From Candidatus Dormibacteria bacterium (GTDB lineage Bacteria > Chloroflexota > Dormibacteria > Aeolococcales > Aeolococcaceae), in the NCBI GenBank assembly GCA_049964715.1, contig JBMFXB010000002.1:12386-76385 (forward strand): 64,000 bases of DNA, given 5' to 3'. This document shows positions 17,242 through 59,634 of this stretch, piece by piece. The notes below the pieces were generated by a model. That model worked only from the letters and a program-made list of their open reading frames with translations. It ran no database searches and was not told where the DNA came from. Position 1 is the stretch's first letter; each line of letters opens with the position of its first letter. The position numbers and the translations under genes were made by a program.

Positions 17242-17406
17242 TTATCCTGTCGCGTATTTCACTCCTTTCTCAATATTGGAATACACATTGTTGACCTGAT
17301 GACCAAGAAGAATCACTGTCACAAGTACTGCCAGTGCAATGAGTACGATTATGAATGCATATTCGACAATACCCTGACCTTTCTCCTCCTGACATCCCAG
17401 TCGCAT
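17242..17406 (-). CDS. flp: Flp/Fap family pilin (prepilin, 54 aa)
   Basis: MRLGCQEEKGQGIVEYAFIIVLIALAVLVTVILLG... carries the Flp motif G|xxxxEY followed by a hydrophobic helix. GGAGGT lies 3 nt upstream of the internal ATG; the ORF extends to 17457. Confidence 0.8.
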   Translation of the reverse strand: MRLGCQEEKGQGIVEYAFIIVLIALAVLVTVILLGHQVNNVYSNIEKGVKYATG

Positions 17407-17547
17407 CCTACCTCCATATAAAAGCAGGACTGGAAGAGATCGTAGCCACGTTGCCACTATAGGCTTCCTCCTTTATATCTGACGTTCTCGCACACCTGAT
17501 AATTCTGTGGGGAATTATAGCACCCTGTCAAATTTACATACTTTGCG

Positions 17548-18477
17548 TCATCCACCTGTCATAATCTTGACGATTGCAGGTCCGAGAAGCACAAGGAAAA
17601 CACAAGGAAAGATACAGAGGAGCATTGGCAGAAGCATGAGGACTGGTGCTCGATGTCCTGCCTCTTCTGCCCTCTGCTTCCGGATACGTCGAAGTTCTTC
17701 GGATTGGACACGAAGGACATTCGCAACACTCACACCTAGTGGCTCTGCCTGCACAACAGCACGAATAAAGTTGTCAAGCTCCTCTACCGGATTTCTCTCA
17801 GCCATTGCTGAGAGAGCTTCAAGACGTGGTCTTCCAAGTCGAATCTCATCTAGCGTTTTCTTGAACTCCCTCCCAAGAGGACTCTGCTCAGACTCTGCGA
17901 CGCGGGACAATGCCATGTCCATGCTGAGACCAGCCTCCATACTGATGGTAAGGAGATCCATGACTCCTGGCAGTGCCCGGGAAATGAGTTTCTGCCGCTT
18001 CTTGATCTTGCTCTTGAGGGAAGAGACTGGCAGACTCCTTCCAAAGAACACACCTCCTGCAACTGCTGCAAGAGTGATTGGAAGGCCAAAGTCGAAGTAA
18101 TTTCCCAGAAACAGTGCTGCGAGCACAAAGACGATTGGGAGCAGGATTTGCTGTCCAAGAAGCATCTGTGGTGATTTCCCCTCAACATCAGCCTGTACAA
18201 TGAGCCGCTGAAGCTTTTCAATCTGACCAGCCTTGGAACTCCGCATCATGATATTGCCTATGCGATTAAAGAGTGGAGTGATCACACGATCAGTAAAGGG
18301 AAGTGCCATCTCTTCCTCGCCAGGAAGTGCAATATTTGATCCACCCATTGCCTCATCGACACCGTAGAGTCGCTGCTCAAGTCGATCCTTGCTAGTCGAT
18401 GGAGAGGCTATTACCAACACAAGGACAAACACACCAACTACAACAGCAATGCCCTCAATGATCGTGATCGGTGTCAT
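17548..18477 (-). CDS. tadC: Flp pilus assembly inner-membrane platform protein TadC (T2SS-F domain)
   Basis: 309 aa with TM segments flanking a cytoplasmic T2SSF-like domain (LISRALPGVMDLLTISMEAGLSMDMALSRVAE..LGRPRLEAL). GGAGGTG lies 8 nt upstream of the ATG. Confidence 0.75.
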   Translation of the reverse strand: MTPITIIEGIAVVVGVFVLVLVIASPSTSKDRLEQRLYGVDEAMGGSNIALPGEEEMALPFTDRVITPLFNRIGNIMMRSSKAGQIEKLQRLIVQADVEGKSPQMLLGQQILLPIVFVLAALFLGNYFDFGLPITLAAVAGGVFFGRSLPVSSLKSKIKKRQKLISRALPGVMDLLTISMEAGLSMDMALSRVAESEQSPLGREFKKTLDEIRLGRPRLEALSAMAERNPVEELDNFIRAVVQAEPLGVSVANVLRVQSEELRRIRKQRAEEAGHRAPVLMLLPMLLCIFPCVFLVLLGPAIVKIMTGG

Positions 18478-18482
18478 TGTCT

Positions 18483-19469
18483 CTACACCTCCACATTCAC
18501 GATTTTTCTGATGATGGCATACCCGCCAGCAATCATGAAGAATGCAAAGCCGAGCATGATCTGACCTGGGAGTTTTGTCAGCATTGGATCAAAGTAACTT
18601 GGTGCAATCATGTAAAGGATGCCACTCAGTGCAAGGGGAAGCACTATGAGTACCCAACCAGATGCACGTGCCTGGCCAGTTATCGTCTTGATCTCACCTT
18701 TGATTCGTACACGTTCACGTATCGTGTACTCAATATTGTCGAGAATGACGGCCAGGTTACCCCCTACCTGCTGCTGTATCTGGATTGCAGTCATGAGAAG
18801 CTTCAGGTCCTCTGATTCACTTCTGTCGACCATATGGCCAAACGCTTCAATAAAGGGGACTCCCAACTGGGTTTCCCTCATGACACGTGCCATATCAGGA
18901 CCCATTGGTGGTGCTGCATTCTGGGAAACAAGATTCATTGCTTGTGCAAGGGTGTAACCGGCCTTCACACCATTGCTCAATGCAAGAACTGTCGGACCAA
19001 GCTGATCCTCAAACTTCTTTCGTCTTTTGTTGTACCGCATCTTCAAATAGATACGCGAGCCGAAAAAAACAACTGCAAACCCAATGATGAGCCCGATAAT
19101 GCTCTTAAAGCGCAACATGAGAAGGAGACCCAGCACTATACTCGCAGCTGAAACCATTGCTGTCCACTCAGTGGGATGAAGCTTGAGATCAGCCTTCTGA
19201 AGCTGCTCAACGAGCTTTGCACCCCGGGATGACTTCTCGAACCGTTTTCCCACACTCTGCTGCAATGAATCTCGAAAGTCAAATGAACTCTTCTTGGTAC
19301 CCTGAAGTGCAAGAGGGGTATCACCATACTCGTCCTCCCATTCACTTTCAGCCGATGTTGCAAGTGAAGGGTCTTCGACTGGAGTACTCTTGGCTCCAGT
19401 GAGCATGAACACACCACCAAACACTCCCAGAACAACGAGTGCACCAGCAATCAGAGAGACGAGGCTCAC
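18483..19469 (-). CDS. tadB: Flp pilus assembly platform protein TadB (T2SS-F domain)
   Basis: 328 aa with T2SSF domain (LALSNGVKAGYTLAQAMNLVSQ...ETQLGVPFIEAFGHMV) and N- and C-terminal TM helices. GTG start preceded by GGAAGGGTGAAG. Confidence 0.75.
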   Translation of the reverse strand: MSLVSLIAGALVVLGVFGGVFMLTGAKSTPVEDPSLATSAESEWEDEYGDTPLALQGTKKSSFDFRDSLQQSVGKRFEKSSRGAKLVEQLQKADLKLHPTEWTAMVSAASIVLGLLLMLRFKSIIGLIIGFAVVFFGSRIYLKMRYNKRRKKFEDQLGPTVLALSNGVKAGYTLAQAMNLVSQNAAPPMGPDMARVMRETQLGVPFIEAFGHMVDRSESEDLKLLMTAIQIQQQVGGNLAVILDNIEYTIRERVRIKGEIKTITGQARASGWVLIVLPLALSGILYMIAPSYFDPMLTKLPGQIMLGFAFFMIAGGYAIIRKIVNVEV

Positions 19470-19484
19470 GATACTTCACCCTTC

Positions 19485-20297
19485 CTACTGGACATAGTTA
19501 TTGAGATTAGATGGACCAACTGTTGCTGCACCTGTAAGTTGACCGTTCTGGTACAGCGAACCATTTGCAATGACAAAGCTCAGTATTGCTGATGGATCTG
19601 TAGCCTGCAGATACTCAAATGCTGCAGCCTGTCCTGGAGACATTTCCACAATGATCACTGACGGGGTAGTCACAACTGGAGCAGCAGCAGTGGTCGAGGC
19701 TGTACCAGTTTTTGCTGCAGGTACTGCAGCTGCTGCAGCAAGGGTTTCATCAAGACTTCCCACCTTGAGTACCTTGATATCCTGGAAACCAAATGAAACA
19801 GGTGTTCCCTTGCCTCCAGCTTGAGTGAGAATATTGATGTAGTCACCCGGCTGGATGTAATAGCCAAGTCCGAGTGTCTTGCTTGTGGAAATCGCAACAG
19901 CAACATTACCAGGATCTGGAAACACACTGTCCGCTGCAGAAGGTACACCTGTAGCATTCGAAGTCACAAATGTCGATTGAAGAATTGTTCCTTGGGCAAT
20001 CTGGATTGCAGAGAATTTTCCAACAACACTCGCAGCTGTTGAAAATACTGTGCCCTGGGGAAGGACAGACTGTGGCACCTTCTTGACAGCCACCATGCTT
20101 GCTGAGAGTGACGTTCCCTGCGGAATGCTTGTGGTCGCCACGACGACGCTCACAGTTGGTCCCTGCACGGAACCTGTGGACGTGGCAGCAGCTTTCGGAG
20201 CATGTCCTTGAGACAATGCAAGTGCAAATCCACCTGCTGCCACAACTGCGGCAATGATTGCAATGAGAATCCTTCTGCTCTGTCCACCTTGATTCAC
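19485..20297 (-). CDS. CpaB/RcpC-like protein (second paralogue)
   Basis: TM segment ILIAIIAAVVAAGGFALAL followed by a SAF-like region (SIPQGTSLSASMVAVKKVPQSVLPQGTV). GTG start with AAGGAG 6 nt upstream. Confidence 0.65.
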   Translation of the reverse strand: MNQGGQSRRILIAIIAAVVAAGGFALALSQGHAPKAAATSTGSVQGPTVSVVVATTSIPQGTSLSASMVAVKKVPQSVLPQGTVFSTAASVVGKFSAIQIAQGTILQSTFVTSNATGVPSAADSVFPDPGNVAVAISTSKTLGLGYYIQPGDYINILTQAGGKGTPVSFGFQDIKVLKVGSLDETLAAAAAVPAAKTGTASTTAAAPVVTTPSVIIVEMSPGQAAAFEYLQATDPSAILSFVIANGSLYQNGQLTGAATVGPSNLNNYVQ

Positions 20298-20462: not shown

Positions 20463-21131
20463 ATGGCAGAAGAGAAAACCCGCTCCCGGATCTACCTTGT
20501 GCGACACTGCGATGTACACAACCCAGAGGGCATCATCTATGGTTTTCGACCTGGCACACACCTCAGTGCATACGGTGTTGCACAGGCACGCACACTTGGC
20601 ACATTCTTCAAACACCGTCCCATTGTGGCCATCATCACCAGTCCTCTGGAGCGTGCACAGGAAACAGCATCAATCATTGCTGATGCCCACACTCCACCAC
20701 TTTCCTTGACTGTTTCTGATGACCTACGCGAGGCAGATTTCAATAAGCACCTTGAGGGCATCAAGCGTCCCCTCATTCCTCTTCTTCGACCACTCTGGCT
20801 CATCCACCTGTTGGCACCCGGGCTCCTGCCCAATGATGAATCAGTGAATGCGCAGGCACAGCGGATGTTTCGTGCAATCCATACAGCTCAGGCAACGTAT
20901 CCGACAGGAGATGTCATCCTTGTCAGCCATGGGGACCCGATCCAATCCCTCTGGATAACAGCAACTCAACGATCCAGATACGCTATTCACCATCTCCAAT
21001 GTGCAAAAGGAGGCATGCTCATCCTCGATATCGCAGATGGTCCACGCATCAGCCTCCAGTACCTCTCACCCCTCGACATCCGCTACCGTGCAGCACACCC
21101 GGATTCACATGAAAAGTCACACGTACACTGA
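20463..21131 (+). CDS. Histidine phosphatase superfamily protein (phosphoglycerate mutase-like)
   Basis: RIYLVRHCDV...LSAYGVAQARTLG...SPLERAQETA matches the RHG-family catalytic core with Cys in place of Gly. Conserved His near the C-terminus (LVSHGD). Confidence 0.6.
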   Translation: MAEEKTRSRIYLVRHCDVHNPEGIIYGFRPGTHLSAYGVAQARTLGTFFKHRPIVAIITSPLERAQETASIIADAHTPPLSLTVSDDLREADFNKHLEGIKRPLIPLLRPLWLIHLLAPGLLPNDESVNAQAQRMFRAIHTAQATYPTGDVILVSHGDPIQSLWITATQRSRYAIHHLQCAKGGMLILDIADGPRISLQYLSPLDIRYRAAHPDSHEKSHVH

Positions 21132-38759: not shown

Positions 38760-39047
38760 TTAATGAAACGTCGACGAAACGGAAGACTCTGTCTCACGAT
38801 ACGAATTAGCTGCCTGATGAAGCTTCGCTGCAATCTGTATCAATGCATCCTGTAGCTGTTTTGCACCCGAGTTCCACTCCTGGTACAGACCATCAAAGTT
38901 TTCGTGAGCAACACCACTCCACACGGACTGGAGAGCATCCACCTGTGAGCGCAGCTGTGTGAGGATTTGCTCAATATTGTCATTTGCCGAAGTAGCATTA
39001 TTTCCTGCCTGATCTACGTCATCAGGAGTTACTGCAAAACCACTCAT
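38760..39047 (-). CDS. WXG100 family protein (ESAT-6-like, 95 aa)
   Basis: MSGFAVTPDDVDQAGNNATSANDNIEQILTQLRSQVDALQSVWSGVAHENF... has the central W-x-G motif (VWSG) and the size and helical-hairpin layout of WXG100 proteins. AGAGGAG lies upstream of the internal ATG; the ORF extends to 39140. Confidence 0.7.
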   Translation of the reverse strand: MSGFAVTPDDVDQAGNNATSANDNIEQILTQLRSQVDALQSVWSGVAHENFDGLYQEWNSGAKQLQDALIQIAAKLHQAANSYRETESSVSSTFH

Positions 39048-39223
39048 TTTTTTGACTCCTCTGCTGCTGTGCACTCCTCCACCCGTTAGGGCTTGGTGCA
39101 AGTATACGAGGTGACTTTTCACGACAGGTCTTCCTGTCACCCCATTGTTACCATTTCGCCGACAGCCATGATAACGATGTTTCAGTTCGCAATGTCACTC
39201 CCCATACCCTTCCCGAAGGTACT

Positions 39224-54562: not shown

Positions 54563-55645
54563 CTACACAGTCTTCTTCCGGTCCTTTAGCCGAGTGAGCA
54601 GCAAGCCCGTCAGGATCATACCGAGAGCGAGTAAAAGTCCAAATCCCAGTCCTGTGGCCGGTACTGAAGCTCCAAGTACTTCACCTGAGGCTGGATCCCC
54701 TGGAGTTGGTTGGCCACCAGTTGAGACACCAAGCACTCCACCTGTCGGCGTATGCGGTGGTGTTGATGTTGGAAGTGGAGTGGATGTTGGTATAGGTGTT
54801 GATGTAGGCGTAGTCGTTGGTGTTGATTTTGGCGTGGTAGTTGGTGTGGATGATGGCGTAGTCGTTGGTGTTGATTTTGGCGTGGTCGTTGGTGTGGATG
54901 ATGGCGTAGTCGTTGGTGTTGGTGTGGATGCAGGCGTAGGCTTAAGCGTTGGTGCAGGTGTAGGAGAATGCGTTAGTGCCACTGGGGGGCAGTCCACCCA
55001 GAAGGTCTTGTGCTTCTGCGGATCCATGCTGAACTGCAGCTTGAAATGCAATCCCTGTGTAGCTTGGGGTACATCACCATTTGAGAGGGCATGAGCCACA
55101 AGTTGGGCAGTATTGATCTGGGCAACAACATTCGTTCCAGCATGTACTGTCCACAGTGCTTCTGAGGGTGCTGCCTTGGTTCCAGGCCATGCCTGGTCCT
55201 GGCTGTATCCAGGTGCTGAAGCTGCATCTGAAGCAAAATGTGACGGGCCTGTCAAGGTCTTTACATCACCTTTGCCAGATCCTGTACCGTTCCACCCATC
55301 AATGGTGAAATACCCTGATGAATCAGCAAGATCACTTGCAAAAAGATAAATGACTGGAGGACAGCCAAGTTTCGGATCGTGCTCATGACCGGGATCAGTA
55401 AATCCTGATGCACTATCGAGCCACACATCCCCATGGTTGTTGTTTCCACCACTTGCATTGCCGGTTTTCGAGTTCCCGCCAAGGCTGTTCGGGCTACTTG
55501 CAAATACGACTCCGGACAGCCCAAGTCCAAGTACTGCACTAAGCACAACGCCGAGAACACTCTGCATCAACAGACTTCCTCTTCTCGACAGACGTCTCAT
55601 GTGAAATGTCGTGGTACTGTTTACAGTACGCATACTCCCCCCCAA
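54563..55645 (-). CDS. Cell-surface protein with Thr/Pro-rich tandem repeats and LPXTG-like (VPATG) C-terminal sorting signal
   Basis: N-terminal signal/TM (LLMQSVLGVVLSAVLGLGLSGVVFA), a globular domain, then repeats (TPTTTPSS/TPTTTPKS) x5. The C-terminus SVPATG-LGFGLLLALGMILTGLLLT-RLKDRKK has the motif-hydrophobic-basic tail arrangement of sortase substrates. Confidence 0.65.
   Translation of the reverse strand: MGGSMRTVNSTTTFHMRRLSRRGSLLMQSVLGVVLSAVLGLGLSGVVFASSPNSLGGNSKTGNASGGNNNHGDVWLDSASGFTDPGHEHDPKLGCPPVIYLFASDLADSSGYFTIDGWNGTGSGKGDVKTLTGPSHFASDAASAPGYSQDQAWPGTKAAPSEALWTVHAGTNVVAQINTAQLVAHALSNGDVPQATQGLHFKLQFSMDPQKHKTFWVDCPPVALTHSPTPAPTLKPTPASTPTPTTTPSSTPTTTPKSTPTTTPSSTPTTTPKSTPTTTPTSTPIPTSTPLPTSTPPHTPTGGVLGVSTGGQPTPGDPASGEVLGASVPATGLGFGLLLALGMILTGLLLTRLKDRKKTV
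54790..54960. repeat. Imperfect tandem nucleotide repeats (about 48-nt unit) encoding the Thr/Pro-rich linker
   Basis: Units such as gtagtcgttggtgttgattttggcgtggt(a/c)gttggtgtggatgatggc recur back to back within the surface-protein gene. Confidence 0.6.
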
Positions 55646-55880: not shown

Positions 55881-57167
55881 ATGGATCGTATGCCAGTTCA
55901 CGAACGTGGGCATGCATTGCTAAAGCTTGCCATTATCAATCACGGGCCGACTCGAAGGCGAGCACTTCAGCGTGGTCAGTCCATGGTCGTTTTTGCAATG
56001 ACATCGCTCATTCTCATTGGTGTTGTAGGTCTCACAGTGAATACGGGCTGGGGAACAATCCAGCGTGAAACAGCTCAGAGTACTGCTGATGCTGTTGCAC
56101 TTGGCATTGCATATGGCTTCAACAATGGCGACAACCTCAATGTTGCAACGCATGACTACGCAGGTCCGATCATGCAGGCAAATGGCCTTCCCATGTCAGA
56201 CCTCACAACGAAGATGATTACCACAGCTACTTCAGTCGAGATCCAGGCAACTGTCTTGGTAGGTGTTACATCTTTCTTCTCGGCTGCATTTGGCAACAAG
56301 ACCTTCACAAGTGGAGCAACTGCTGAGGCACCTCTCACGATTCAGTGCGGTCTCTGCATTGATGGCACAATGACGGACAACCTGTCTGCTACAGGAAATC
56401 CAAGCATTGATGTATCAGGTACAAACATTTATACAGCAGGGAACCTTTCTGTCGGAGGCAGTGCCCAGGTATCAGCAAACAACGTCTTTGTCAGTGGTTC
56501 AACGACAGTATCCGGTACCGTGATTCCATCCCCGCCGATCACGGTTCCTCCGTTTCCCAATCCTGTTGCAGAGCCACCTCCACCCACCTGTTCCACCCTT
56601 GCTGCTGAGGGAGTCAGCGACTGTCCTTCCGTCCAATCAGCTGGCAACCCCATGTTTCCAGGCGTGTACAACAACATCACCCTCAATGGAGGTGCAGGTG
56701 ATGTGACAATGGAACCTGGCATCTACGTCATTACAGGAAATCTGAAAGTCAGCTCAACGACGGACCTCACGGGAAGTGGTGTCATGCTGTACTTCACCTG
56801 CAGTTCATTCCCGAATCCATGTCCAGCAAACTCCACTGGCGGGAGTCTCACGATTGAGGGCTCCGGCAACATCAATCTCACACCGCCGACCTCTGGACCG
56901 TATCAGGGGCTCCTTATCTATCAGGATCCAAACAACAGTTCCCCCCTATACCTTACAGGTGGAGGCGATCTCAGTCTCACGGGAACAATCTACGCTCCTT
57001 CCGCAACCCTGCAACTCCAGGGCAATTCTGGAGCCACGACGTCACTCAACTCAATCATTGATGTCGGTGGAGTAACAGCAAAAGGGGATGGAACCATTAA
57101 TGTGAGCTACAACGAAAATGCAAACTATGTGAATGGCATTACGAAGAGTGAGTGGCTCTATCAATGA
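55881..57167 (+). CDS. TadG-like pseudopilin / pilus-associated protein
   Basis: N-terminus ...LQRGQSMVVFAMTSLILIGVVGLTV is the TadE/G-type motif. Large Thr/Ser/Gly-rich domain. C-terminal region IYAPSATLQLQGNSG resembles the conserved TadG YAP..GN motif. AAGGGA lies upstream of the ATG. Confidence 0.6.
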   Translation: MDRMPVHERGHALLKLAIINHGPTRRRALQRGQSMVVFAMTSLILIGVVGLTVNTGWGTIQRETAQSTADAVALGIAYGFNNGDNLNVATHDYAGPIMQANGLPMSDLTTKMITTATSVEIQATVLVGVTSFFSAAFGNKTFTSGATAEAPLTIQCGLCIDGTMTDNLSATGNPSIDVSGTNIYTAGNLSVGGSAQVSANNVFVSGSTTVSGTVIPSPPITVPPFPNPVAEPPPPTCSTLAAEGVSDCPSVQSAGNPMFPGVYNNITLNGGAGDVTMEPGIYVITGNLKVSSTTDLTGSGVMLYFTCSSFPNPCPANSTGGSLTIEGSGNINLTPPTSGPYQGLLIYQDPNNSSPLYLTGGGDLSLTGTIYAPSATLQLQGNSGATTSLNSIIDVGGVTAKGDGTINVSYNENANYVNGITKSEWLYQ

Positions 57168-57655
57168 GGACATCCCTCATTCCTCGTCACAGAGCTCAGG
57201 AATCTGGACAGGCAGTAGTAGAGTTTGCACTCTTTCTTCCCATCATCCTGCTTCTTCTCTTTGGTGCAGTAAATGTGTCCATTCTCTTCAACAACATCAC
57301 CTCTCAGGACGGCGCAGTCCGTGATTCAGCTCGATATGCCAGCATCAATCCAGCATCCTTCAGCACCCACACTCCCCCTGATGCCAACTCCATCCAGGGC
57401 ATTGCCTACGCTGAAAACACAAGTCTTACTCCAGATGCAATCACGATCAACTACTACTATCCCGATGGGGGTCTCTGTGGCACGTATACAGCTGGAGATG
57501 GTTTCGTTGGAGATCAAACAGATTGCACACAACCCGGTTACTTCGTACAGGTTGTCGGAAAAGTCATCTATACTCCAGCCATCATCAATGTTTTCAGTGG
57601 TTTTGGTTCTGGTGGGCTCCCCATCTCCACTTCATACGAGTTTGTCATCCAATGA
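57152..57655 (+). CDS. TadE-like pseudopilin
   Basis: ...ESGQAVVEFALFLPIILLLLFGAV is a textbook TadE N-terminus. Overlaps the upstream gene. Confidence 0.7.
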   Translation: MALSMRTSLIPRHRAQESGQAVVEFALFLPIILLLLFGAVNVSILFNNITSQDGAVRDSARYASINPASFSTHTPPDANSIQGIAYAENTSLTPDAITINYYYPDGGLCGTYTAGDGFVGDQTDCTQPGYFVQVVGKVIYTPAIINVFSGFGSGGLPISTSYEFVIQ

Positions 57656-58203
57656 AACAGCATCGCAAGCAACGACGAATGACACGTGCACAGGCAGCAG
57701 TCGAACTCGCCCTCATAGCACCCATTCTCCTTGCAACCATCTTCATCCTCCTTGACACTGCACTTTTCTATACGACGGAGCTTTCTGCTGCTAATGCTGT
57801 GCAGTATGGAGCCCGATACGCAGCAGTCCATGCTATTGAGTGGTCGAACGCCAATCCTCCTGCGTCCGACACTATCCAATATGCTGTGACCTCAAATGAA
57901 GGTCTTGCTACCCTCATCAACCAGGATGCTACAGCCCCGGATGGTAGCCCGAACAGGACATACCTTGAGGTCACATATTATGACACGAGTGGCGATACGA
58001 TGACTGAGTGTGGTTCATATACTGTTGATAACGGCTTCCAGGCAGCTTCCGGGTATACAGAATTCAGCTGTGTTCAAGCTGGAAACATGGTGAGGATCAC
58101 TATCCACTGCGTGTACACTCCCCTCACGCCCGTACTTGGTCAATTCCTTCCCAATGGTATAGTCATCAGTGAATCTGCAACTGCACTCATTGAGCATATC
58201 TGA
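57652..58203 (+). CDS. TadE-like pseudopilin
   Basis: MKQHRKQRRMTRAQAAVELALIAPILLATIFILLD. Start set at the ATGA overlap with the previous gene; the ORF begins at 57523. Confidence 0.65.
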   Translation: MKQHRKQRRMTRAQAAVELALIAPILLATIFILLDTALFYTTELSAANAVQYGARYAAVHAIEWSNANPPASDTIQYAVTSNEGLATLINQDATAPDGSPNRTYLEVTYYDTSGDTMTECGSYTVDNGFQAASGYTEFSCVQAGNMVRITIHCVYTPLTPVLGQFLPNGIVISESATALIEHI

Positions 58204-58241: not shown

Positions 58242-59045
58242 TCAACCAACTGCACATTTGCGCTCTTGGAGAATGACTCGCTCAGAAGGGCGCACTGTGA
58301 GTACATGGGGACCATCTTCCGTTATTGCAACTGTATGCTCTGCATAGGCGGACCAGCTTCCATCCTGCGTGACAACTGTCCAGTTGTCCTCCAACGTGCG
58401 AACAGCATCACGGCCCTTGTTAACCATGGGCTCAATCGCAATGACATAGCCTGGCTTTAGTTCATTGCCTGTACCTGGCTTTCCATAATTGGGCACCTGT
58501 GGTGGCTCATGCATATCCCGCCCGATACCATGGCCAACATAATGTTTCACCACCGCGTAGCCATGAGACTCGACATATGTCTGAACCGTATGTCCAATAT
58601 CGCCAATGTGAGCTCCTGGTCGTGCTACTTCTATCGCCCGATACAGCGCTTCCTGTGTCACATCAATGAGCTTTTGCATCCCTGGCTCAACATTGCCACA
58701 CGGCACAGTGAGTCCACTATCCGCCCACCATCCATCGAGAATGAGACCACAATCGAGCGAAACAATATCTCCATCCTGCACCACCCGCTCTCCAGGAATG
58801 CCATGTACTACTTCATTGTTAACAGAGATGCATATGGACTTTGGGAAGCCATCATAACCAATGAACCCTGGAATACAACCATGATCCCTGATGAAGGTCT
58901 CTGCTTCACGGTCGAGAGTATTGAGTGTTACCCCTGGCGCAACATGTGTGGCAACATGCTCAAGGCATGCACCAAGAATCTCTCCTGAACGAGCCATTCG
59001 TGCGATTTCATCAGGCTTCTTCAGTCGAAAGCTCTCGCCCCGCAT
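58242..59045 (-). CDS. map: Methionine aminopeptidase, type I
   Basis: Pita-bread fold metal ligands (DIVSLDCG, HGIGRDMHE, EPM). Start trimmed to MRGESFRLKKPDEIARM; the ORF extends to 59081. Confidence 0.9.
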   Translation of the reverse strand: MRGESFRLKKPDEIARMARSGEILGACLEHVATHVAPGVTLNTLDREAETFIRDHGCIPGFIGYDGFPKSICISVNNEVVHGIPGERVVQDGDIVSLDCGLILDGWWADSGLTVPCGNVEPGMQKLIDVTQEALYRAIEVARPGAHIGDIGHTVQTYVESHGYAVVKHYVGHGIGRDMHEPPQVPNYGKPGTGNELKPGYVIAIEPMVNKGRDAVRTLEDNWTVVTQDGSWSAYAEHTVAITEDGPHVLTVRPSERVILQERKCAVG

Positions 59046-59634
59046 GATGCTCCTCCTCAAGATTTCCCTTCTCCAACACATGAATGAGTCTCGTCGTCAC
59101 AGTATCAACATCCGGCGTGCCATCGACATCGACCATCGGTGCCCCCTGTGCACGGTAATACTCGATGGTGGGAATTGTCTTTTCCTCATACTCCTTCAGA
59201 CGCTGTTTAAGCACTTCAACAGAATCATCCGATCGACCTTCAACTGTCGCACGGTGTTGAATACGCTCCAAAATGACATCCGTCGGAACAGAAAGATGAA
59301 CAATGAGATCTATCGTCATTCCGAGTTCCCTGAGAAGATCAGCCAGGCCCTCTGCCTGTGGCTTTGTGCGTGGATACCCATCAAGGAGGACACCGTTGAC
59401 ACCTGTCGTTTCCAGAAGGACACGACGAATCATGGCGAGCATGTACGAATCTGGAACGAGTTCTCCACGATTCATGAGATCCTGGACTTTCTTCCCAAGT
59501 TCAGTCTCTTCAGCAATCTCCTTCCGAAGCAATTCACCTGTGCTGACATGTCTGAGATGAAAATGGGCTGCAAGTTGTGCTGACTGTGTCCCCTTACCAC
59601 TTCCTGGAGGACCACAGATGATGTAGTGCTTCAT
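59011..59634 (-). CDS. adk: Adenylate kinase
   Basis: P-loop GPPGSGKGTQ. LID region with Ser/Thr rather than a Cys4 zinc site. Confidence 0.9.
   Translation of the reverse strand: MKHYIICGPPGSGKGTQSAQLAAHFHLRHVSTGELLRKEIAEETELGKKVQDLMNRGELVPDSYMLAMIRRVLLETTGVNGVLLDGYPRTKPQAEGLADLLRELGMTIDLIVHLSVPTDVILERIQHRATVEGRSDDSVEVLKQRLKEYEEKTIPTIEYYRAQGAPMVDVDGTPDVDTVTTRLIHVLEKGNLEEEHHAGRELSTEEA

Follow-up and report, generated by a model that had tools for sequence, protein, structure and literature searches.

How can the genes for the core of a surface filament persist in a bacterial lineage when the ATPase expected to power its assembly is not encoded beside them? The question is raised by a 64,000-nucleotide (nt) stretch of a Candidatus Dormibacteria genome (GenBank assembly GCA_049964715.1, contig JBMFXB010000002.1, positions 12,386 to 76,385; the whole stretch is called the window), in which four neighbouring genes, cpaB-like, tadB, tadC and flp, encode platform proteins and the pilin of a Tad pilus. 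It is likely that this module, in one of two forms found in Dormibacteria (locus 1), encodes a functional portion of a Tad (Flp, type IVc) pilus of the monoderm type, and that assembly is powered by a CpaF/TadA-type ATPase whose gene lies at another site of the genome.

The Tad module of the window

The module runs from cpaB1 to flp, with gaps of 15, 5 and 90 nt between successive genes (protein lengths in amino acids, aa):

20297-19485, minus strand: cpaB/rcpC-like gene (cpaB1), first gene of the module, 270 aa; Pfam SAF (2.3e-9) and RcpC (1.8e-8)
19469-18483, minus strand: tadB, 328 aa; one Pfam T2SSF (PF00482) domain (1.1e-15)
18477-17548, minus strand: tadC, 309 aa; one T2SSF (PF00482) domain (3.7e-19)
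17502-17531, minus strand: promoter-like region in the tadC-flp spacer, with an extended -10 TGCTATAAT at 17522-17514 and TTGACA-N18-CAGAAT (consensus scan)
17457-17242, minus strand: flp prepilin gene, 71 aa from GTG 17457, comprising a leader of 27 residues and a mature pilin of 44

The original prediction, made from the letters alone, had named all four genes, and they are real at these coordinates, with Pfam matches to T2SSF, SAF and RcpC and a match of Flp to Flp_Fap under the gathering score of that family (E 2.6e-4; 21 bits against 32). The tandem pair of single-domain T2SSF platform proteins characteristic of Tad pili is present as TadB and TadC, each with 3-4 transmembrane (TM) segments, and tadB directly follows a cpaB paralogue, as had been described. 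The window TadB is 100% identical to P0001, and its 90% cluster contains MGC8460405.1 (Candidatus Dormibacteria). The cpaB1 product has a single N-terminal TM helix (residues 10-28) and scores 65 bits against TIGR03177, slightly below the cut-off of 71; RcpC/CpaB proteins with both SAF and RcpC domains are encoded twice in the window.

The pilin gene likewise bears the marks of its family, namely a processing site of the form G/XXXXEY and hydrophobicity at the start of the mature protein: a motif scan bore out the cleavage motif G|QGIVEY reported earlier, followed by an 18-residue hydrophobic stretch. Around 22 of 41 mature residues (~54%, counted by eye) are identical to those of the Flp_Fap-bearing open reading frames (ORFs) of relatives, and related Flp ORFs are found at the second locus (locus 2) of other Dormibacteria. 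The Shine-Dalgarno sites that had been noted were found at all four starts (AAGGAG, GGAAGGGTGA, GGAGGTG and AAAGGAGG in the order cpaB, tadB, tadC, flp). An alternative flp start, ATG 17406, would give a protein of 54 aa. Yet the closest relatives (L001 and L002) keep the arrangement AAAGGAGG-N9-GTG and the first codons, while the Shine-Dalgarno sequence ahead of the internal ATG is not conserved, and the 71-aa prepilin is therefore preferred. Since the extended -10 TGCTATAAT in the tadC-flp spacer is conserved, flp is probably transcribed from its own predicted promoter; TGCTATAAT and CACAGAAT are invariant across the window, L001 and L002, and the rest of the spacer varies.

The synonymous divergence (dS) of flp against L001 and L002 is ~0.3, three- to seven-fold below that of all neighbouring genes (1.1-2.2), and the 5' leader of flp is conserved at the nucleotide level too. 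The low value may reflect strong constraint at the level of codons or RNA, in a pilin expressed at high levels, or else a recent exchange between lineages. An Rfam search of the locus returned a single match, to mir-15 (E 0.08), which is attributed to chance.

The neighbour of the module on one side is a phosphatase gene (20463-21131, plus strand), which the original prediction called convergent and which in fact stands head to head with cpaB, in divergent orientation. On the other side, a convergent ORF delimits the module.

Motor, TadZ and prepilin peptidase

The claim that neither a motor ATPase nor TadZ/CpaE nor TadV is encoded anywhere in the 64 kb stood up to a Walker A scan, tblastn and Pfam, which agree. 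No Walker A motif ([AG]xxxxGK[ST]) occurs in six-frame stop-to-stop ORFs of at least 80 aa in the window, and its sole P-loop protein is adenylate kinase (59011-59634). The CpaF and CpaE probes, which readily find their targets in canonical loci, gave no tblastn match in the window, and none was obtained for Peptidase_A24 (TadV/CpaA) even at E<=10. Pfam scans of ~50 window ORFs contained no member of the T2SSE, TadZ/CpaE or A24 families, and a census of the polytopic membrane ORFs of the window left no unassigned TadV candidate. One apparent candidate, at 54594-55094 on the plus strand with four hydrophobic segments, was rejected as the antisense shadow of a Pro/Thr-rich repeat.

The TadA/CpaF ATPase is thus found neither at the locus nor within the 64 kb. 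TadZ/CpaE is also missing from the window, and it is probably present elsewhere in the genome, as three paralogues are encoded at the distant locus 2 of relatives. For the prepilin peptidase TadV/CpaA, separate encoding has been described in some systems (PMC6668835). The cleavage motif G|Q..VE[YF] occurs in three proteins of the window, Flp and two TadE-like proteins, and the presence of several peptidase substrates therefore points to a demand for a prepilin peptidase encoded outside it. The Secretin family (RcpA/CpaC), which belongs to diderm systems only, is not represented among the scanned window ORFs; this is not disqualifying, and it is expected, because Dormibacteraeota have been placed in a monoderm clade (bioRxiv 10.1101/2021.05.31.446380).

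Conservation across Dormibacteria

Around 260 kb of Dormibacteria sequence, as estimated from locus lengths, was inspected (the window, L001, L002 and L012-L026), reaching about ±10 kb at the loci of relatives. The closest genomes are Candidatus Dormibacterota metagenome-assembled genomes (MAGs), with TadC 91-92% identical in L001 and L002; the strain of the window is a near match of the contigs on record without being the same as any of them. These closest relatives retain the order nuo, resB, phosphatase (opposite strand), cpaB, tadB, tadC, flp, and on the other flank they also keep the formyltransferase-like and HhH-GPD genes. The run of resB, histidine phosphatase (opposite strand), cpaB, tadB and tadC is retained in the near-identical strain (L008-L011), and the same order is found on a 1.46-Mb contig whose TadB is 52% identical to that of the window (L012). 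In L014 (TadB 48-53% identical, depending on the alignment), two TadE genes stand directly upstream of cpaB-tadB-tadC.

The original prediction treated the missing ATPase as an oddity of one locus. Instead, cpaB-tadB-tadC without an ATPase is common to all Dormibacteria loci examined, down to ~45% TadB identity, and it occurs in two paralogous forms. The locus 1 form always adjoins resB and the histidine phosphatase gene, as in the window, while the locus 2 form reads cpaB-tadB-tadC ... flp, ParA-like, CpaE, CpaE, rplA (L015/L017, L016, L022 and L026). On the 1.46-Mb contig, the second triplet lies ~270 kb from locus 1, with flp and three ParA/CpaE-type genes within ~5 kb and next to rplA-rplK-nusG-secE. 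A CpaE query showed that the 1.46-Mb and 864-kb contigs encoding TadB also encode CpaE, again in neighbourhoods without a T2SSE gene. Within ±10 kb of locus 1 or locus 2, no T2SSE gene was seen in any Dormibacteria locus examined, nor any other conserved P-loop ATPase near either locus, the only Walker A ORFs there being of the ParA/CpaE type (GKGGVGK[ST]). The flp gene is at locus 2 in most Dormibacteria and stands beside the locus 1 tadC only in the genus of the window.

Many T2SSF residues are invariant across both TadB paralogue clades. In a neighbour-joining tree of TadB, bootstrap support is 100% for the locus-1 clade and likewise for the locus-2 clade, and both stand apart from the canonical clades, while the deep branching order has 48-51% support, so that the cpaE-cpaF pair, situated between cpaB and tadB in the closest relatives outside Dormibacteria and gone from the Dormibacteria loci, would have been removed either once before the duplication or twice.

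The G+C content of the window is ~50%, that of its congeners L001 and L002 is 54-55% and that of all other Dormibacteria loci fetched is 66-73%; the group of the window is a low-GC lineage within a high-GC group. No paper on Dormibacterota pili, Tad or other, was found in the literature searched.

Tad loci outside Dormibacteria

The state from which these loci depart was determined by a survey in which metagenomes were scanned with a TadB alignment and then searched with tblastn, counting 52 loci with at least 1.5 kb of sequence upstream of tadB. The gene order ascribed earlier to characterised loci, with the ATPase gene between cpaB/cpaE and tadB, is borne out: cpaF lies directly upstream of tadB in 45 of the 52, most often in the order cpaB-cpaE-cpaF-tadB-tadC. 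Of the seven loci that deviate, six belong to the Dormibacteria type and share at least 46% TadB identity with the window. A locus that is not of the Dormibacteria type, L073 (Ga0136611_10024061; TadB 42% identical), carries tadB-tadC and lacks cpaF in the 2.2 kb available upstream.

The nearest canonical loci (L027-L033, L098, L101 and L102) bear Chloroflexi or Limnocylindrales labels. Canonical Chloroflexi-type loci, including L027, L031-L033, L039, L098 and L102, also encode a second, shorter T2SSE of 377-388 aa (in the loci with gene calls), located a few kb downstream of tadC, after DUF192, and 55-60% identical to CpaF. It is possible that this protein serves as a second assembly ATPase or as a retraction ATPase.

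Source of the assembly motor

The best reading of these gene neighbourhoods is that the motor would be supplied in trans. This was one of the options offered by the original prediction, the other being a decayed or repurposed variant, of which the decay part falls. In the proposed arrangement, TadB and TadC would form the inner-membrane platform, accompanied by CpaB/RcpC, which would be anchored by its N-terminal helix. A TadV-type peptidase encoded elsewhere would cleave Flp and the TadE-like proteins at G|Q..VE[YF]; Flp, as the major pilin, would lose its leader at G|Q and then be polymerised, and the TadE/F/G-like proteins would act as minor pilins. Assembly would be powered by a hexameric T2SSE of the CpaF/TadA type encoded elsewhere, possibly shared by both platform paralogues, and such sharing is plausible because two platform paralogues exist and no ATPase is linked to them. 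TadZ/CpaE acts together with the TadA/CpaF ATPase, and a CpaF partner is implied by the three CpaE/TadZ paralogues retained in relatives. No secretin would be needed, given the monoderm placement.

Several results weigh against a motor in trans. No CpaF or TadV was found on any demonstrably Dormibacteria contig: the ~260 kb inspected hold no T2SSE gene, and CpaF-seeded searches gave only canonical-locus ATPases of other lineages. With the CpaF of the closest canonical locus (L033) as query, only the canonical loci L098/L099, L101 and L102 and the diderm L100 were recovered, and an exhaustive phmmer search of 50% representatives with P0359, together with cluster look-ups, gave no Dormibacteria-labelled CpaF. 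The sole CpaF labelled as Candidatus Dormibacteraeota (P0342/L101) is encoded within a canonical locus, on a contig of 11.5 kb; it shares 82% identity with the L033 CpaF and may be mis-binned.

These negative results speak for a system that has been repurposed or is unconventionally powered, in which Dormibacteria would lack a dedicated CpaF and the module would rely on a non-cognate ATPase (e.g., a T2SSE of the PilB/GspE type), on an unrelated motor or on a role independent of any ATPase. The directed searches attributed no CpaF to a bona fide Dormibacteria contig, and the ATPase-less state, with no T2SSE gene beside either paralogous module, holds for every Dormibacteria locus examined and for both paralogue clades. 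However, inspection covered about ±10 kb per locus in genomes presumed to measure several Mb, and the three CpaE/TadZ paralogues have been kept with an intact deviant Walker A, which would make little sense without a CpaF-type partner. No T2SSF platform is known to function in the absence of a T2SSE hexamer. Such repurposing is thus judged improbable, and there is likewise only a small chance that no cognate CpaF/TadA exists anywhere in Dormibacteria, with pili driven by a non-cognate or non-T2SSE motor or with one unlinked ATPase serving two divergent platforms.

A more specific version of the in-trans model would draw the ATPase from a third Tad locus in the same genome, of the canonical kind (flp-cpaB-cpaE-cpaF-tadB-tadC-DUF192-...-second T2SSE). 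It could appeal to L101, which comes from a MAG labelled Candidatus Dormibacteraeota, and to the likeness of locus 2 to the canonical loci, with which it shares the adjacency of PEMT (opposite strand) and flp and a TadB identity of 52-57%. Yet the L101 contig is short, and the other named matches of the L033 CpaF query, 76-89% identical, bear the names Limnocylindrales, Chloroflexi or Acidoferrum. By tetranucleotide profile, the canonical loci fall together and not with the Dormibacteria loci, although this separation is weak and confounded by homology, and locus 2 looks like a rearranged orthologue of the canonical locus and not like an addition to it. We therefore regard a third locus as a rather unlikely source.

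The idea that the module is a decaying Tad remnant, which has lost its ATPase and is on its way to pseudogenisation, deserves hardly any credence. It would explain why neither the locus nor the 64 kb as a whole encodes the ATPase, TadZ or the peptidase. However, the ratio of non-synonymous to synonymous substitution rates (dN/dS), computed against L001 and L002, is 0.05-0.08 for flp, 0.03 for tadC, 0.03 for tadB and 0.05-0.06 for cpaB, compared with 0.03-0.04 for nuoM/nuoN and 0.07-0.14 for neighbouring genes (the phosphatase gene, the formyltransferase-like gene and others without an assigned function); these ratios are approximate, as dS is saturated (>1) for most genes, though their direction is unambiguous. 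Moreover, the module ORFs are intact and full-length in all relatives examined, down to ~45% identity, and the T2SSF residues noted above and the promoter, Shine-Dalgarno sequence and processing site of flp are conserved. With dN/dS at 0.03-0.08, on a par with the genes of respiratory complex I, the module is under strong purifying selection and decay is excluded.

Finally, there is next to no chance that the window was simply cut short of the missing genes, or that they belong to the operon of the module: the window is finite, but its two ends are 17 kb and 44 kb away from the module, which lies between its divergent and convergent neighbours, with the same flanks in relatives, and the cpaF/tadZ/tadV set that the original prediction told its readers to look for in the same transcription unit is absent, the ±10 kb flanks of relatives holding no such genes.

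Further Tad genes in the window

A motor supplied in trans also accords with the distribution of the other Tad genes. The original account of the Tad genes in the window was incomplete, as it overlooked two more clusters (14227-9441 and 55881-58203), here called cluster A (minus strand) and cluster C (plus strand). A single locus is typical of Tad systems, though not strictly defining, and here the 64 kb contain three separate clusters without the motor set; the same dispersal holds for all Dormibacteria loci examined, and scattered genes are the norm in the genome of the window. The two clusters supply the TadE/F/G pseudopilins of a Tad pilus, with five TadE-domain ORFs and one Tad/TadG-like ORF.

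The genes of cluster C are:

55881-57167, plus strand: tadG-like pseudopilin gene, first of cluster C, 428 aa; Pfam Tad (PF13400) 3.2e-5 and DUF7305 1.4e-7
57152-57655, plus strand: tadE-like pseudopilin gene, 167 aa; TadE 2.3e-10, motif G|QAVVEF
57523-58203, plus strand: tadE/tadF-like pseudopilin gene, up to 226 aa, true start probably farther downstream; TadE 8.1e-8

The 167-aa TadE-like protein matches the TadE pair that immediately precedes cpaB-tadB-tadC in L014, and, of all window proteins, the tadE/tadF-like product is the one that both L014 TadE proteins match best (E 5e-19 and 6e-20). Cluster C is tied to the cpaB-tadB-tadC module because these L014 proteins, encoded beside that module, match cluster C best. 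Together with a surface-protein gene, cluster C makes up a ~4-kb insert that splits the normally contiguous secY-adk-map / rpsM-rpsK-rpsD-rpoA cluster. The surface protein (54563-55645, minus strand, 360 aa) has a long Pro/Thr-rich stalk and a C-terminal tail resembling a sorting signal (VPATG, TM segment, KDRKK).

Cluster A is headed by a second cpaB paralogue, followed by two ORFs without family assignment, three TadE-like genes and three larger proteins that likewise lack one, and extends to 5177:

14227-13289, minus strand: cpaB2, second cpaB paralogue, head of cluster A; RcpC 9.2e-10 and SAF 9.8e-10, likely start ATG 14146
11568-10687, minus strand: first of three consecutive TadE-like genes; Pfam TadE 3.3e-3
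10783-10031, minus strand: second TadE-like gene; TadE 7.4e-6
10034-9441, minus strand: third TadE-like gene; TadE 4.4e-9, motif G|QTMVEF
within 13282-5177, minus strand: other ORFs, of 215 aa, 288 aa, 658 aa (Tyr/Trp-rich), 464 aa (C-terminal TM segment) and 194 aa (lipoprotein-like)

The cpaB2 product scores 78 bits against TIGR03177, over the cut-off of 71. Pairwise CpaB scores are low, and by score neither cpaB1 nor cpaB2 is assignable to locus 1 or locus 2 orthology. The ORFs of cluster A outside these families gave no Pfam or NCBIfam match, and judging from their position they may form part of the pilus system. Among the loci fetched they occur in the same genus only, and they evolve fast: cluster A proteins are 29-73% identical at the amino acid level in L002, compared with about 90% for TadB and TadC. 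In the near-identical strain L008, DNA identity to the window is 98.5% over the nuo-to-HhH-GPD side, including cpaB-tadB-tadC-flp, and 88% over cluster A. Cluster A thus looks like a hypervariable, possibly recombining surface-protein region. At the cluster A junction, L008 carries ~1 kb of additional sequence with an HTH_7 gene. The 658-aa ORF (9272-7296, minus strand), directly downstream of the three TadE-like genes, encodes a protein with a very high content of Tyr, Trp, Asn, Gln and Thr and a signal-like helix at its N-terminus, which could be a pilus-associated adhesin or tip protein.

Apart from the pilus genes, the window contains a gene of the WXG100 family (ESX/type VII secretion substrates) at 38760-39140 on the minus strand, between Rieske-domain and PIN-domain genes; no type VII machinery genes were seen among the scanned ORFs neighbouring it.

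Comparison with known pilus systems

The closest known counterparts of the module are the canonical monoderm Tad loci of Chloroflexota/Limnocylindria-type soil bacteria (L027-L033, L098, L101 and L102), which read flp-cpaB-cpaE-cpaF-tadB-tadC-DUF192-x-second T2SSE. They share with it the Flp, CpaB, TadB and TadC families, the lack of a secretin and the position of cpaB upstream of the platform genes, at identities of 39-46% for TadB and 38-45% for TadC. While the canonical loci place cpaE and cpaF between cpaB and tadB and a second T2SSE downstream, cpaB and tadB of the window are separated by 15 nt, with no ATPase gene nearby. Locus 2 of Dormibacteria resembles the window in its paralogous cpaB-tadB-tadC, in the absence of a T2SSE gene and in a similar Flp, yet it belongs to a separate TadB clade, has CpaE/TadZ paralogues and adjoins rplA, whereas the module of the window adjoins resB.

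The classical Tad/Cpa systems (tad of Aggregatibacter and cpa of Caulobacter; diderm L004-L007 and L100) have in common with the window the Flp G/XXXXEY site, TadB with TadC, RcpC/CpaB and TadE/F/G. They differ in being encoded at one locus with cpaE-cpaF directly upstream of tadB, and L100 additionally has a secretin and TadV. The type IVa pilus belongs to a different branch of the type IV filament superfamily and has a single PilC platform protein. Its likeness to the arrangement proposed here lies in parts of one machine being spread over several loci and supplied in trans (PMC6668835).

In comparative genomics, the Tad pilus has been treated as a single-locus, frequently transferred machine (PMC6668835). 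Dormibacteria would be a lineage-wide exception among the loci examined, with platform genes uncoupled from the ATPase, duplicated and set apart from the pseudopilin genes, and detectors that expect one Tad locus could under-call Tad systems in Dormibacterota. The arrangement also raises a question of partner specificity, namely whether one CpaF can serve two platforms of only ~45% identity, and if these genomes had no CpaF whatsoever, the mechanism itself would be new. For an abundant uncultured soil phylum, such pili are a candidate attachment mechanism. All component families are known Tad ones; what is new in comparison with the systems above is the organisation, which is scattered, includes a duplicated platform and extends across the lineage.

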